Source of the DNA: a bacterium
GTDB taxonomy: Bacteria; UBA6262; WVXT01
Direction of reading: 5' to 3'
DNA length: 5,048 nucleotides
Assembly: GCA_046759165.1 (NCBI GenBank)
Contig: JBHIBS010000076.1
Location: forward strand, 1 to 5,048
Shown here: positions 1,076 through 4,911 of the stretch, in pieces
Layout of the letters: every line of letters begins with the position of its first letter
Numbering within the stretch: the first letter of the stretch is position 1
Position numbers and translations under genes: made by a program
Notes under the pieces: generated by a model
Told to the model about the DNA's origin: nothing
What the model saw: the letters and a program-made list of their open reading frames with translations, nothing else
Database searches by the model: none

Positions 1076-1900
1076 ATGGCTAAGAAAGTGCTTATTGTGG
1101 ATAGCGATATTGATGCTAGGTTCTTAGTGAAGGTACATTTGAGAAGATTCGATGTTGAGTTTATCGAAGCCAGAGATGGAGAGTCGGGACTGGAACTCGC
1201 CCGGTCGCAGAAGCCAAACTTAATTGTGATGGATTATGTTCTGCCCAAGTTGAGCGGTTACGAAATGGTGAAGAGAATTCGGAAAGATGAAGCTACCAGA
1301 GGGGTCCCCATAATTATAGCTACAATAGCCGGGTTCAACTTGCAGATGAAGGAATTGAATATTGTGGAGTATCTTCCCAAGCCCTTCTCTCGAGCACAAT
1401 TCTTAAGAGCGGCGAAGAAAGCATTGGGAGAGATGCGCCTCAAAAGAGAGGAAACTAGACCAATCTCTACAGGTGCTGAAACTCCAAAGGGAGTGCCTCT
1501 CCCCAAACAGAAAGTGGAGGCTCCAGCCAAAATGGAAAAGATTGTTGTAGCTGATGACGAAGAAAATGTGAGAGAGTTACTGAAAAATTTACTTAAAGAT
1601 AGATATCGAATAATTCTGGCTAGAGATGGGCTGGAGTTGGTAGAAAAAGTCGAAAAAGAGAGACCGGACTTAATCATCTGTGATGTGATTATGCCCGGGA
1701 AGAGCGGTTATAAGGGGATTAAGAAATTGAGGGAAAAGCCTGAATTTCTCAACCTGCCAGTAATCTTCAATTCGGGCGTAGTTAAAGATAGAGAGTTATA
1801 CGAGACCTTAAAGCCAGAAGGACCGAGCTATTTCATGCGCAAGCCGTTCGAAAAGAAGGTCCTTTTAGAAAAAATAGAAGAAATGTTGAATAAAAAATAG
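1076..1900 (+). CDS. Response regulator with two tandem receiver (REC) domains and no output domain
   Basis: REC1: KVLIVDSD...PNLIVMDYVLPKLSG...IIIAT...YLPKPF. REC2: KIVVADDE...PDLIICDVIMPGKSG...VIFNS...FMRKPF. They are joined by a Pro/Lys-rich linker. Purine-rich RBS (AAGGGATAAGAG) upstream, 10 nt after the previous stop. Confidence 0.9.
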   Translation: MAKKVLIVDSDIDARFLVKVHLRRFDVEFIEARDGESGLELARSQKPNLIVMDYVLPKLSGYEMVKRIRKDEATRGVPIIIATIAGFNLQMKELNIVEYLPKPFSRAQFLRAAKKALGEMRLKREETRPISTGAETPKGVPLPKQKVEAPAKMEKIVVADDEENVRELLKNLLKDRYRIILARDGLELVEKVEKERPDLIICDVIMPGKSGYKGIKKLREKPEFLNLPVIFNSGVVKDRELYETLKPEGPSYFMRKPFEKKVLLEKIEEMLNKK

Positions 1901-1923
1901 CTTGTTTATCGCTCAAGAATCTC

Positions 1924-1952
1924 TTGACGCCAAAATCTTCACAAACTATCTT
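1924..1952 (+). promoter_or_regulatory. Putative sigma70-type promoter
   Basis: TTGACG (1924-1929), 17-nt spacer, TATCTT (1947-1952), in intergenic DNA upstream of the tRNA-Arg gene. Predicted start ~1959-1960. Confidence 0.55.
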
Positions 1953-1992
1953 TCAAACGGCAGGAGTGGCGGAGCGACAGTTCCGCGCCAAC

Positions 1993-2020
1993 GTAGGGGT
2001 TCGATTTATCGAACCCTTTT
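1993..2020 (+). repeat. GTAG-tagged palindrome (REP-like); also shaped like an intrinsic terminator
   Basis: GTAG (1993-1996) is immediately followed by the perfect inverted repeat GGGTTCGAT (1997-2005)/ATCGAACCC (2008-2016), then TTTT. Only one copy is in the window, so repeat status is inferred from the architecture. Confidence 0.45.
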
Positions 2021-2071
2021 CCAAACCCTCTTGGTTTGCTTTCGCTAAGGCAGAAGAATTGATATAGTTAT

Positions 2072-2143
2072 GGGCTCATAGCTCAACGGAGAGAGCACAG
2101 GGTTGCGGACCCTGGGGTGAGGGTTCGATTCCCTCTGAGCCCT
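2072..2143 (+). tRNA. tRNA-Arg(GCG)
   Basis: Full cloverleaf: acceptor GGGCTCA/TGAGCCC, D arm GCTC-AACGGAGA-GAGC (A20 Arg identity element), anticodon arm CAGGG-TT[GCG]GA-CCCTG (anticodon 2105-2107), T arm GAGGG-TTCGATT-CCCTC. CCA not encoded. Confidence 0.95.
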
Positions 2144-2163
2144 TAAATTCATAGGGATTGGGC

Positions 2164-2610
2164 GTGAAGATTTTCTTAATCTTTGCAAATGGGATATGTG
2201 CCGGATGGGCGGGGCTCGTATTCCTCTATTTTCTTAAATACAATTTCATTTCCTGGGCTATGGTGGATGTCTCTTCCATCATCCAGCTCTTTGCAGTATT
2301 TGCTCTAATCTTCGGGAAGAGAATATTAATGAATATTTCCATCCCTTTCCTTCTATTCTATGGAACAGAGGGATTTTTTGTTTACAATTGGTCTTTAAGG
2401 ATGATTCCTGCCCAGATAAGCCGCTCCATAATGGTCCTGACAGCTCTCTATATTATCTACCTTATGATTACGCGCTGGGAGATAGGGAAGTTGGCCATCG
2501 GGATTATGCTCGGAATTATACTCTTTGTACCATTTAGAATATGCGAGACTTACTATTTGAAGACCCATCCAGAAGTTAAGAGTTATTTCGAATTTTTTGA
2601 GGGTAAGTAA
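2164..2610 (+). CDS. Hypothetical integral membrane protein (~4-5 TM segments)
   Basis: Hydrophobic ORF filling the gap between two tRNAs. GTG at 2164 has AGGGA (2153-2157) 6 nt upstream, so it is preferred over the ORF-track TTG at 2158. Stop TAA at 2608-2610. No family recognised. Confidence 0.7.
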   Translation: MKIFLIFANGICAGWAGLVFLYFLKYNFISWAMVDVSSIIQLFAVFALIFGKRILMNISIPFLLFYGTEGFFVYNWSLRMIPAQISRSIMVLTALYIIYLMITRWEIGKLAIGIMLGIILFVPFRICETYYLKTHPEVKSYFEFFEGK

Positions 2611-2615
2611 TTTAT

Positions 2616-2703
2616 GGAGAGATGCCGGAGTGGTTGAACGGGGCGGTCTCGAAAACCGCTATCCCGATTTTTGGGATCGGAGGTTCGAATCCTCCTCTCT
2701 CCG
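2616..2703 (+). tRNA. tRNA-Ser(CGA)
   Basis: Acceptor GGAGAGA/TCTCTCC, discriminator G, D arm CCG...CGG, anticodon arm GCGGT-CT[CGA]AA-ACCGC (anticodon 2650-2652), long variable arm ATCCC...GGGAT, T arm GGAGG-TTCGAAT-CCTCC. CCA not encoded. Confidence 0.97.
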
Positions 2704-2841
2704 TTTGATTCACAGGAAGGATTCGAAGCGAGCGAGCGCCGAGGTCACCCGAGGAGGAGCGAAGGATGAGCGGCAGCGAGTGAGCCGGCTCTGAGGTTCT
2801 GGGAGGAAGGGGAGAACCGAAGAGGAATCCTCCTCTCTCCG
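2704..2841 (+). repeat. tRNA-linked structured repeat, module A copy 1 (ends in a duplicate of the tRNA-Ser(CGA) 3' end)
   Basis: 31-bp exact direct repeat at 2687-2717 and 2825-2855 (GAATCCTCCTCTCTCCGTTTGATTCACAGGA), period 138 bp. The body 2704-2824 aligns without gaps to 3779-3899 (about 95/121 identical by hand count). Confidence 0.9.
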
Positions 2842-2864
2842 TTTGATTCACAGGAGGGGTCGCT

Positions 2865-2934
2865 GGAGCGACGAGTAAGGAGCTCCGCCTTAGCGACGGG
2901 CGCGAGACGGTGAGCGCCCCGGGTCCGAAGCGAA
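2865..2934 (+). repeat. Structured repeat, module B copy 1
   Basis: 70 bp, 65/70 identical to 3944-4013. Hairpins GGAGC/GCTCC (2865-2886) and GGGCGC/GCGCCC (2898-2919). Confidence 0.9.
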
Positions 2935-2953
2935 TGAGTGGGGGAGGAATAGG

Positions 2954-3676
2954 ATGAGAAGCGGCGCAAAAAATTTCTTAATCCCATTTTTTACTTCTAT
3001 TCTTGTTTCGGCACTGGTCTGTTTTCTTTTCTTTCTTTACGGCATCCCCTTTCTGGAGAAGGTGGAAGTGCCGGATGTGAGGAGGGCAACCCTTAACCAA
3101 GGCAGGCTTATTCTGGAAAGTAGAAGACTTTTCTTGCTTGTGGAGTCCGAAAGAGAAGACCCCTCTATTCCTCAAGGCTCAATTATCAATCAGAGTCCTC
3201 TTCCAGGCTCTGTTGTCAGAAGAGGCACACCGATAACCGTTGTGCTCAGTAAGGGTAAGAAGGTGCTGGCTATCCCCAATCTCTCCTCGGTTCCCCTGGA
3301 AGAGGCACGCAGGAGATTAGAGGAGATGGGGCTTAGAGTGGGTAGTATAACCAAGCAGCTTTCCGATTCTATTGCCAAGGGTTCCATAATTTCCACCTTT
3401 CCTTCTCCCAATTCAATAGTGAAAGAAGGGACAATAATAGACCTCATCTTGAGTAGAGGCAAGGAGGAAATTGTCGTGCCCAATGTTCTTGGCAGAAGGT
3501 TAGGAGCAGCAAAGGGGATTTTAGAGAGGGCGGGCTTGAAAGTAGGTCAGATAGACTATGTATGCGATATAGAGAAATTATTCGATATCATTTTGGGGCA
3601 AAATCCGAGGCCCGGAAAGAGAGTCCCTATATCGACACGTGTGAACCTTACCATAAATGCTGAAGAGGAAGAATGA
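2954..3676 (+). CDS. PASTA-domain membrane protein (N-terminal TM plus three PASTA repeats, no kinase domain)
   Basis: GGAGG RBS at 2943-2947. N-terminal hydrophobic helix. Three repeats: VEVPDVRR...GSIINQSPLPG...VVLSKG, AIPNLSS...GSIISTFPSP...LILSRG and VVPNVLG...ILGQNPRPG...VNLTIN. Confidence 0.92.
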   Translation: MRSGAKNFLIPFFTSILVSALVCFLFFLYGIPFLEKVEVPDVRRATLNQGRLILESRRLFLLVESEREDPSIPQGSIINQSPLPGSVVRRGTPITVVLSKGKKVLAIPNLSSVPLEEARRRLEEMGLRVGSITKQLSDSIAKGSIISTFPSPNSIVKEGTIIDLILSRGKEEIVVPNVLGRRLGAAKGILERAGLKVGQIDYVCDIEKLFDIILGQNPRPGKRVPISTRVNLTINAEEEE

Positions 3677-3690
3677 CAGGAGAGTCCGAT

Positions 3691-3777
3691 GGAGAGGTGT
3701 CCGAGTGGCCGAAGGAGTACGCCTGGAGAGCGTATGAACGGGAAACCGTTCCGTGGGTTCGAATCCCACCCTCTCCG
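3691..3777 (+). tRNA. tRNA-Ser(GGA)
   Basis: Acceptor GGAGAGG/CCTCTCC, discriminator G, D arm TCC...GGA, anticodon arm TACGC-CT[GGA]GA-GCGTA (anticodon 3725-3727), variable arm GAACGG-GAAA-CCGTTC, T arm GTGGG-TTCGAAT-CCCAC. CCA not encoded. Confidence 0.97.
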
Positions 3778-3916
3778 GTTTGATTCACAGGAGGGATTCG
3801 AAGGCCGCGAACGCCGACCTTGTGGGAGGAAGAGCACTGGAAGTGCGGCAGTGAGCGGGCAGGCTCTGAGATTCTGGGAGTGAAGGGAGAACCGAAGAGG
3901 AATCCCACCCTCTCCG
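3778..3916 (+). repeat. tRNA-linked structured repeat, module A copy 2 (ends in a duplicate of the tRNA-Ser(GGA) 3' end)
   Basis: 17-bp exact direct repeat GAATCCCACCCTCTCCG at 3761-3777 and 3900-3916, period 139 bp. The body is homologous to 2704-2824. Confidence 0.9.
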
Positions 3917-3943
3917 AGAAAAAGGGGTCAGAGTCATTTTTTA

Positions 3944-4034
3944 GGAGCGACGAATAAGGAGCTCCATGTTAGCGACGGGCGCGAGATGGTGAGCGCCCCG
4001 GGTCCGAAGCGAAGGAGCGCCGAGGTCATCCGAG
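3944..4034 (+). repeat. Structured repeat, module B copy 2, running into a partial module A
   Basis: 3944-4013 matches 2865-2934 (65/70). 4005-4034 matches 2724-2753 (27/30). Confidence 0.85.
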
Positions 4035-4059
4035 AAAAAGCGCGGAGGGAGACAGTAGA

Positions 4060-4911
4060 ATGGGTAAGAAAAAGAGTGTCCTTGATTTTTGTAAGATGAA
4101 AAAAGGCAGAGAAAAGATTACATTTCTCACATGTTATGATTATCCTACTGCTACTTTTGCTGAGAAGGCTGGTTTAGATATGCTTTTGGTTGGCGATTCG
4201 TTGGGTATGGTTGTTTATGGATATGAAGGTACCATACCAGTAACAATGGAGCAGATGATTGTTCATGCAGAAGCTGTCCGCAGAGGAGCTCCCAATACCT
4301 TTGTTATTGGCGACATGCCATTTATGTCATACCAGGAATCTGTAGATAAGGCAATATATAATGCCGGGAGATTTTATAAAGAAGCAAATGTGGATGCTAT
4401 CAAACTTGAAGGTGGAAGGAGAGTAATTAATCAAATTAAAGGGATTGTAGATGCAGGAATGGTACTAATGGGACATATTGGCTTGACTCCTCAAAGTTCA
4501 GGTCAGTTAGGAGGATTCAAAGCTCAGGGTAGAACTGCTAAGAGTGCTATGGAGTTAATTTTGGATGCGAAGGCGATTGAGGAAGCAGGTGCTTTTGCTA
4601 TTTTGCTTGAGGCTATACCGCCAGAGGTAGGAAAGATTATCACAGAAAGAAATCAGATACCTGTTTTAAGTATTGGCGCAGGAATTGATTGTGATGGTCA
4701 AGTGCTGATTGTTGGTGATATGTTAGGATTGTCTGAAGCATTCACTCCTAAATTTGTGAAGAAATATGCTTCTTTGAGTAATGATATTACAAAAGCATTT
4801 AGGGAATATATACAGGATGTAAAGGAAGAGAAGTTTCCAGAAGAGAAACACGTATACAAAATGGAACCAGGTGAGAGAGAAAAACTTGAGGAATTGGTCT
4901 CAGACATATAA
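4060..4911 (+). CDS. panB: 3-methyl-2-oxobutanoate hydroxymethyltransferase (ketopantoate hydroxymethyltransferase)
   Basis: Hallmark motifs LTCYDY, LLVGDSLGMVVYG, GDMPFMSY, AIKLEGG, MGHIGLTPQS, GGFKAQGRT, IGAGIDCDGQVL and PKFVKKY. GGAGGGAG RBS upstream. Confidence 0.98.
   Translation: MGKKKSVLDFCKMKKGREKITFLTCYDYPTATFAEKAGLDMLLVGDSLGMVVYGYEGTIPVTMEQMIVHAEAVRRGAPNTFVIGDMPFMSYQESVDKAIYNAGRFYKEANVDAIKLEGGRRVINQIKGIVDAGMVLMGHIGLTPQSSGQLGGFKAQGRTAKSAMELILDAKAIEEAGAFAILLEAIPPEVGKIITERNQIPVLSIGAGIDCDGQVLIVGDMLGLSEAFTPKFVKKYASLSNDITKAFREYIQDVKEEKFPEEKHVYKMEPGEREKLEELVSDI

Follow-up and report, generated by a model that had tools for sequence, protein, structure and literature searches.

The 5048-bp contig JBHIBS010000076.1 (C76), which was analysed over its entire length and is referred to here as the window, belongs to a 1.885-Mb metagenome-assembled genome (42% GC, 165 contigs) and carries, behind each of its two tRNA-Ser genes, a 139-nt repeat (module A; 79% identity between the two copies, offset 1075), followed by a 99-nt repeat (module B; 82%). 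Module A is an element of the tRNA-linked repeat (TLR) type with a different core, i.e., of a kind that is known from Escherichia coli but is unexplained. We consider it probable (ca. 70%) that module A forms the core of a gene-less unit of ca. 138 nt that folds as a predicted RNA in the tRNA trailer. A preliminary description of positions 2728-2824 had recognized a branched fold with tandem G·A pairs, but the unit it delimited is incomplete: it lacks the outer helix (P0), the borders formed by the tRNA and by a copy of the tRNA end, and the linkage to tRNA genes. It is this linkage that is the key to the identity of module A. In the following, G000 denotes the source genome, G001-G008 the eight other genomes of its bacterial family, and C-numbers their contigs.

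A covariance model (CM) built from nine module A copies gives 37 matches at E ≤0.01, spread over 9/9 family genomes, and none in the three other genomes of the phylum that were searched (0/3; 98, 76, and 91% complete). With BLAST/nhmmer, copies are found in the source genome on C19, C22, C65, C7, and C61, besides the window, and in all eight other family genomes; among the matches listed, those outside the family are confined to the tRNA portion of the query. A co-oriented tRNA gene is located ≤700 nt upstream in 24 of 30 CM matches, mostly 13-18 nt away, 14 nt being the typical distance for the Ser, Gln, and Leu(GAG) copies. The linked tRNAs are Ser(CGA, GGA, TGA, GCT), Gln(CTG), Leu(GAG, CAG), and Trp; altogether, at least nine tRNA species are associated with module A. 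The six matches without a called tRNA comprise one that starts inside a tRNA-Ser(GGA) gene, one behind a tRNA-Trp-like 5′ part, two at contig ends, an orphan with Leu(CAG)-type ends on C61, and a module with tRNA-Asn-type ends on C22, where 6.2 kb separate it from tRNA-Asn. The tRNA-Trp-like case (G006 C84:3251-3365; locus L077), in which module A follows straight after the 5′ part (anticodon loop CTCCAAA, judged by eye) and ends in a diverged Trp-type tail, may represent a tRNA pseudogene with the module in its T-loop.

The ends of the units are made of the tRNA that they accompany. Each unit opens with the reverse complement of the T-loop and the first T-stem bases of its own tRNA (AGGATTCGAA behind the T-loop TTCGAATCCT, GGGACTTGAA behind TTCAAGTCCC, and GAGATTCGAA behind TTCGAATCTC), and these inverted copies track the T-loop variants (e.g., TTCGAATCCT, TTCAAGTCCC, TTCAAATCCC, and TTCGAATCTC). 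In the first unit of the window this segment, which lies 13 nt downstream of the tRNA, matches the reverse complement of the T-loop region exactly over 10 nt. The 3′ end of a unit is a direct copy of the tRNA from the middle of the T-loop to the discriminator, identical at 16/16 positions in 17 of 22 copies and at 15/16 in two; the copy is degenerate in 3/22, all truncated composites. The identity often continues into the trailer, over 17-35 nt in total, and in copy 1, where the tail copy is 16/16 identical, the run extends over 31 nt. The inverted and the direct tRNA segments pair with each other, and this pairing is the outer helix P0. Approximately 121 nt, without a gene, lie between the direct repeats. 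The first unit of the window and its surroundings are composed as follows, the helices being predicted ones:

2615-2704, + strand: tRNA-Ser(CGA), without encoded CCA, anchor of copy 1 (ARAGORN; Rfam tRNA, 57.3 bits)
2705-2717, + strand: linker or trailer of 13 nt between the tRNA call and the inverted T-loop copy, recurring at 2842-2855 (direct repeat D4)
2718-2728, + strand: T-loop and 3′ strand of the T-stem of the same tRNA in inverted copy (AGGATTCGAA), then G; 2719-2724 is the 5′ strand of P0
2719-2724 with 2825-2830, + strand: outer helix P0
2728-2785, + strand: three-way junction P1/P2/P3 (from covariation, pair make-up, and alignment)
2728-2737 with 2776-2785, + strand: P1, tandem G·A at 2734-2735 with 2778-2779
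2739-2754, + strand: P2 hairpin, tandem G·A at 2741-2742 with 2751-2752
2759-2771, + strand: P3 hairpin with a GGA triloop
2789-2824, + strand: P4 hairpin, CTCT-GA-GGTTCT ... AGAACC-GA-AGAG, with a purine-rich loop of the GGGAG..GGGAG type; the least conserved helix
2825-2841, + strand: direct copy of the tRNA 3′ end, mid T-loop to discriminator, equal to 2687-2703 (direct repeat D3); the leading 6 nt form the 3′ strand of P0
2842-2855, + strand: second copy of the trailer or linker (D4)
2856-2923, + strand: first copy of module B, terminal hairpin at 2898-2919

The four sequence items from which the preliminary description had built its fold (P2, P3, the P1 arms, and P4) are all present where it had placed them, as is the repeat at an offset of 1075 (direct repeat D1, 139 nt). 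P2 reads CC-GA-GG-tcac-CC-GA-GG in the first copy (2739-2754) and CC-GA-CC-ttgt-GG-GA-GG in the second (3814-3829), and P3 is changed from GC-GA-A-gga-T-GA-GC (2759-2771) to GC-AC-T-gga-A-GT-GC (3834-3846). Some 26 differences had been claimed between the two copies; the differences exist, but we count 25 among 97 positions (2728-2824 and its partner), 17 of which fall within proposed pairs. As had been claimed, many of these differences preserve pairing: 9 of the 11 changed pairs are still paired or have exchanged G·A for a Watson-Crick pair. Five of the 11 went from one standard pair to another (four of them by a change on both sides), four from G·A or A·G to a standard pair, and two to a mismatch (G·G at 2729-2784 and A·C at 2796-2817).

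The preliminary description had further proposed a covariation test on a larger alignment of homologs, and over 24-29 copies the signal exceeds that of both shuffled and slid controls. The alignment fitted with the CM contains the best 30 of the 37 matches (29 distinct, from 9 genomes). In this alignment 75% of the cells are paired and 25/33 pairs show changes on both sides; the number of cells with such changes is 153, compared to 49.5 in shuffles (reached in 0/500) and 9-40 in slid controls, and the covariation score is 0.382, compared to 0.134 in shuffles (0/500) and ≤0.112 in slid controls. Since an alignment fitted with a CM is biased to its own structure, the count was redone on a plain, structure-blind MAFFT alignment, restricted to P1-P3, of 24 full-length copies, from which five composite or truncated copies and one identical copy had been excluded. 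Here, 12/21 pairs show both-side changes, in 78 cells (27.2 in shuffles, 0/500; ≤21 in slid controls), and the covariation score is 0.381 (0.122 in shuffles; ≤0.084 in slid controls). P0 is paired in 91.7% across copies, and all six of its pairs change on both sides, along with the tRNA. For P4 (helix 5) the figure is 58.3%, with both-side changes in all six pairs.

The make-up of the pairs adds to this. The two central tandem G·A positions of P2 are non-standard in 24/24 and 19/19 cells of the MAFFT alignment and never a standard pair. The inner tandem G·A of P1 is non-standard in 22 of 24 copies, and the other two have U-A plus C-G, a Watson-Crick replacement that is expected if these positions lie inside a helix. 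In P3 and the outer part of P1, G·A and Watson-Crick pairs alternate among copies. P1-P3 of the 24 copies contain 353 Watson-Crick, 9 G·U, 1 A·C, 111 G·A, and 0 U·C pairs, which leaves only the + strand plausible as the folding strand, and the predicted energy is lower on the + strand in 24/25 copies with RNA parameters and in 25/25 with DNA parameters. The proposal that only the + strand carries the tandem G·A fold is thus borne out by pair make-up and strand energies alike. At the level of sequence, these comparisons support selection acting on a strand-specific, single-stranded branched fold with tandem G·A pairs. Two other structural features were considered and rejected by eye: a possible interaction between the P2 loop and P3 (UCAUCC/GGAUGA) is not conserved among the copies, and a kink-turn does not apply to tandem G·A in symmetric 2 × 2 positions within helices, without a three-nucleotide bulge.

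The layout of the units is that of the TLRs of E. coli, which have been known since 1978 (Egan and Landy, 1978; Rudd, 1999; both as cited in PMC8144298). According to the excerpted text of Stenum et al. (2021; PMC8144298), strain K-12 possesses 22 TLRs at ten loci, with an identity of 18-19 bp with the tRNA 3′ end; that text gives no known function for them and states that an early tie to amino-acid starvation was later withdrawn. One of them, RtT (rttR, tyrT operon; RF00391), was reported as an RNA product (PMC3318445 and PMC8144298, in excerpt), and Rivas described covariation-supported tandem GA in RtT (PMC7657543 and PMC8250186, in excerpt). In the K-12 genome we found 16 RF00391 matches behind Tyr, Pro, Lys/Val, Ser, and Arg tRNA genes; in 10 of the 12 that could be scored, the last 18-19 nt repeat the tail of the respective tRNA from within the T-loop onwards, and 8/12 have an inverted copy of 8-10 nt. 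The RF00391 units at the tyrT locus all finish with 19 nt copied from the tRNA-Tyr tail, beginning at AATCC in the T-loop, and the outer stem of the Rfam RtT model pairs the tRNA-tail copy with the upstream inverted copy.

Module A units and TLR/RtT thus both adjoin a co-oriented tRNA gene on its downstream side, have a tail copy that starts in the T-loop (in E. coli from AATCC, 18-19 nt; in module A from GAATCC, 16-17 nt or more), form the outer helix from this tail copy and an inverted copy of the T-arm region, occur as one to several tandem units per locus (one to five in TLRs), and possess a multi-branched interior with helix-framed tandem G·A pairs. However, the inner architecture of module A is a different one (P1 around two hairpins, and an extra P4), its inverted copy covers the T-loop itself and not the T-stem and acceptor, most of its host tRNAs are without encoded CCA, no copy was found behind a 5S rRNA gene, and its host is an uncultivated family far from the Enterobacteria. 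With the same layout down to the T-loop breakpoint, yet without membership of RF00391, module A is therefore filed as TLR-type with a different core. Within a literature search of a few terms that excluded subscription journals, such units were not described outside the Enterobacteria.

Module A represents a second family with the TLR end architecture, on a different core and in a far-off lineage, and turns a single-species curiosity into a comparative problem, with clear covariation, nine tRNA species, and variation in presence and absence between genera. The shared parts (inverted T-loop copy, tRNA-tail copy, and tandem G·A pairs) can be separated from the accidental ones, the origin of the unit ends becomes a question that can be asked, and processing and binding partners become testable in more than one system. 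For annotation it is relevant that the units break assemblies, mimic partial tRNA genes, and can pass for integration scars.

The module is kept at the same tRNAs in four genera. Gln is a shared host in G000, G005, and G008, Leu(GAG) in G000, G004, and G005, and Trp in G001, G002, G003, and G008, which indicates that the association is old. Every relative retrieved has different DNA downstream of the orthologous tRNA-Ser(CGA): nothing is present in G003, other modules occur in G001 and G005, and the linker plus module B in G002 and G006. The number of units per locus varies from 0 to 3; the window has one per tRNA, and tandem arrangements exist on C19 of G000 (two full units and a partial one) and on C80 of G002 (two units 182 nt apart). 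As judged by eye, the 5′ half of copy 1 resembles the Ser(TGA) copies and its P4 the Ser(GGA) copies, a mixed make-up suggestive of recombination among units. The cores differ by ca. 20%, and the tRNA-tail copy is much better conserved than they are. Together with identity that runs into the non-functional trailer, this probably reflects gene conversion or unequal crossing-over that is still going on between the units and the tRNA gene. On C85 of G000 (positions 1-260), the DNA in front of tRNA-Gly(CCC) contains a duplicate of the 5′ part of this tRNA, reaching to the T-stem, together with a module B variant, and a duplicate of its 3′ part, beginning at the T-loop, lies behind it, so that both breakpoints are at the T-loop. 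The module on C22 of G000 is separated from its tRNA by a 6.2-kb island (C22:13801-20275; locus L094), which has a 13-nt repeat of the tRNA-Asn 3′ end at its borders and contains an AbiEi antitoxin gene, an unassigned 293-aa open reading frame (ORF), and DUF4062, CBS, PTS-EIIA, and Na/H-exchanger genes; no integrase gene ≥70 aa was seen in it. Its borders and gene content indicate that the island landed between tRNA-Asn and its module.

We propose that the unit is read on the strand of the tRNA and would fold into a compact multi-helix structure, in which P0 would pair the inverted T-loop copy with the first bases of the second tRNA 3′ end and enclose the P1-P3 junction and P4, while tandem sheared G·A pairs would stiffen the three-way junction and P4. 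The unit is probably transcribed together with the tRNA, because no terminator-like site was found in 1850-4150, including the tRNA-to-module interval, and it might be released as a stable small RNA on tRNA 3′-end processing, as E. coli RtT reportedly is. Gene conversion or unequal crossing-over would continually homogenize the direct repeats (17-35 nt, into the trailer) with the tRNA gene, which would also explain gain, loss, and tandem growth, and modules would be swapped between tRNA loci by recombination. RNA rather than single-stranded DNA (ssDNA), a choice that the preliminary description had left open, is favored as the folding molecule by the position in the tRNA trailer, the lack of terminators, the co-orientation of module B with ORFs in 41/42 cases, and the E. 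coli precedent.

Several observations weigh against this interpretation. The copies are kin by descent and exchange, and the shuffle controls therefore overstate significance. By eye, helix variants ("alleles") appear to be swapped wholesale as blocks, which resembles recombination more than stepwise compensatory mutation, and P4 is poorly kept in the Ser(TGA) and Ser(GCT) copies, where it is not formed as drawn. Over all five helices, G·U and A·C pairs are nearly equal in number (23 vs. 21), the asymmetry being confined to the well-aligned P1-P3, so that the wobble test alone is weak once the poorly aligned P4 is included. The RNA folding z-scores of the + strand are −0.72 for copy 1, i.e., no better than shuffles, and −2.51 for copy 2, and that of the entire tRNA-plus-module precursor is +0.26; because the folding energy is unremarkable, the case rests on comparing copies, and the z-scores are not used as evidence. 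RF00391 (45-bit threshold) has no match in the window at E ≤1, nor in 2690-2960 at E ≤10, and the module A CM scores E. coli RtT at ca. 8 bits (E ca. 0.2), no better than antisense tRNA; since neither model finds the other's element, the cores are not demonstrably homologous. Among the public runs containing the stretch no RNA run is listed, and site-specific DNA insertion would likewise fix the orientation relative to the tRNA.

A wider reading, in which TLR-type units are a widespread class, ancient or recurrent, of small RNAs riding on the 3′-end maturation of stable RNAs, is in our opinion rather doubtful. A common DNA mechanism at any tRNA, e.g., template switching at the palindromic T-loop and subsequent gene conversion with the tRNA gene, might then produce one inverted and one direct tRNA-tail copy flanking an exchangeable, nuclease-resistant, G·A-rich core. 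The RNA would mimic the tRNA 3′ end and could be a decoy or platform for tRNA-end enzymes, with a binding surface made up of conserved purines in the junction and in the P4 loop.

Among the alternatives to a trailer RNA, the one that survives best, even if it is unlikely, is that the fold acts as ssDNA, i.e., as a substrate of an HUH (Y1/RAYT-type), integron-like, or other recombinase on the lagging-strand template, and that the unit spreads as DNA. Tandem G·A pairs and GNA loops are stable in ssDNA too, and the preference for the + strand in all 25 copies with DNA parameters would fit. The source genome possesses two Y1_Tnp genes (62 and 53 bits), the presence and number of units vary among relatives, and the duplicated tRNA tail from the T-loop resembles attachment-site duplications. 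However, the Y1 genes (on C4 and C40) lie between copies of a different inverted repeat of their own, of the AAAAAGGGGTCAGAGTCATTTTTT type, instead of module A hairpins, the unit ends carry neither a GTAG tag nor a GTTRRRY box, and these ends change with each tRNA, which would be intolerable to a fixed-end transposase. These three points also argue against the analogy with integron attC sites and HUH targets that the preliminary description had drawn, while its inference of selection on a single-stranded fold stands. The retention of copies at the same tRNAs in four genera and the orientation of the sister modules, which fits transcription better than replication direction, likewise speak for RNA.

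Inverted AAAAAGGGGTCAGAGTCATTTTTT-type motifs flank both Y1 (IS200/RAYT-like) genes (C4:49700-50500 and C40:2600-3450), one of which lies directly behind tRNA-Arg and tRNA-His, and a solo AAAAAGGGGTCAGAGTCATTTTTT is located at 3919-3942, directly after the tRNA-tail copy of unit 2. Module A resembles repetitive extragenic palindromes (REPs) and bacterial interspersed mosaic elements (BIMEs) in being made of short GC-rich hairpin modules that occur in mosaics and in many copies and that break assemblies (many module A copies are at contig ends). It differs from them by having no GTAG tag, by being tied to tRNA tails and strictly sense-oriented, and by the association of the RAYT-like genes with other repeats; a REP/REPIN-RAYT assignment was rejected, as 2719-2834 contains no GTAG/CTAC and the Y1_Tnp genes are flanked by other inverted repeats. 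Integron attC sites were rejected because GTTRRRY is absent from the unit borders and the units lie behind tRNAs, not in cassette arrays (no search for intI was made). Miniature inverted-repeat transposable elements were rejected as well, since the terminal inverted segments vary with the tRNA and the direct repeats of 17-35 nt are the tRNA tail.

Slightly less likely still is that the units are inert scars, left over from tandem duplication or from T-loop-recombining integrative elements, with functionless hairpins carried from a GC-rich mosaic repeat family. In tRNA-targeting integrative elements a direct repeat of the tRNA 3′ part from the T-loop brackets foreign DNA, and module A is also bracketed by a tRNA 3′-part repeat that starts in the T-loop. 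The C22 island, with its 13-nt repeat of the tRNA-Asn end, is a real case at one such locus, submodules are found solitary elsewhere (e.g., at 4005-4042), and the helix variants look block-swapped. Scars would decay, yet the helices of module A stay paired through many both-side changes, its G·A positions are near-invariant, and the tail copy is preserved at 16/16 in 17/22 copies while the cores have diverged. Furthermore, the same core occurs at nine tRNA species, and the DNA between the repeats is gene-free. In contrast to an attachment-site duplication, these ca. 121 nt hold no integrase gene, and the insert is a conserved, covarying fold accompanied by an inverted T-loop copy.

That the unit is a protein sponge, by analogy with the E. 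coli rrA/rrB/rrF TLR RNAs, is very improbable. Three such RNAs bind CsrA and Hfq in vitro, as stated in the excerpted text of Stenum et al. (2021; PMC8144298), and the candidate sites in module A would be the GGA triloop of P3, present in most copies, and the GGA-rich P4 loop. CsrA (PF02599), which the same search finds in E. coli, B. subtilis, and T. maritima as controls, was detected in 0/9 family genomes (83-96% complete), and no Hfq search was made; a sponge of the CsrB/RsmZ type was accordingly rejected in spite of the GGA loops. A small arginine-rich peptide, like tpr within the E. coli RtT repeat, can practically be dismissed: + strand ORFs of 64-65 aa do run through both copies, but they begin within the tRNA genes, the 25 differences are spread evenly across the codon positions whichever frame is read (7-10 per position), and no + frame is open in more than 9/24 copies.

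The remaining features of the window comprise the second unit, its surroundings, and the third tRNA gene, same-strand (+) protein genes being located between the three tRNA genes:

2072-2143, + strand: tRNA-Arg (ARAGORN)
3690-3778, + strand: tRNA-Ser(GGA), anchor of copy 2 (ARAGORN, Rfam)
3793-3899, + strand: module A copy 2 (covariance model match, 118.4 bits), composed of the inverted T-loop copy GGGATTCGAA (3793-3802), P1 (3803-3812 with 3851-3860), P2 (3814-3829), P3 (3834-3846), and P4 (3864-3899)
3900-3916, + strand: direct copy of the tRNA-Ser(GGA) 3′ end, equal to 3761-3777 (16/16 identity, 17-nt run)
3944-4017, + strand: second copy of module B (direct repeat D2)
4005-4042, + strand: lone submodule of the P1-5′/P2 type (BLAST match to module A positions 22-59)

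An Rfam scan of the window gave only tRNAs above threshold, with sX4 and others far under their gathering scores. By their records, the public DNA runs that contain the stretch are metagenomes from hydrothermal vents, the subsurface, and sediments. In the DNA contigs of four public runs, the cover over the repeats is a mixture of the tRNAs and repeats of many organisms; one contig, from a single run, joins 3803 to 3915 with undetermined letters in between, and no conclusion is based on it. In the predicted minimum-energy fold of 2615-2842, the 5′ acceptor strand of the tRNA pairs with the distal copy of the 3′ end and not with its own, so that, on paper, the two copies compete for it.

The GC-rich module B belongs to the same repeat set as module A but is distinct from it; it exists in two variants, and its copies in the window lie at 2856-2923 and 3944-4017. 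Its terminal hairpin has 26 copies in G000, often at contig ends, and its strand is that of the upstream ORF in 21/21 cases and that of the downstream ORF in 20/21, the ORFs being those of a crude caller. The loop of its first hairpin contains an 11-12-nt string, GCGACGA[A/G]TAA, that is shared, perhaps by chance, with E. coli RtT units, where it immediately precedes the tRNA-tail copy. Module B is often succeeded by a further module, TGAGGTTTCCCCTATTGAGCACAGGCTGATTCACATAAGGAGG (e.g., G000 C27:14490-14540, C40, and C2), whose terminal part is a Shine-Dalgarno sequence directly upstream of the start codon of the following gene, by which the repeat seems to supply ribosome-binding sites. The GATTCACA motif of this TGAGGTTTCCCCTATTGAGCACAGGCTGATTCACATAAGGAGG-type module is also found in the tRNA linkers of the window. 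Upstream of tRNA-Arg, positions 1924-1952 are promoter-like and are followed, within 1924-2040, by a GC-rich stretch, which contains a GGAGCGACAG motif and a T-arm-like hairpin, GGGTTCGA-TTTA-TCGAACCC.

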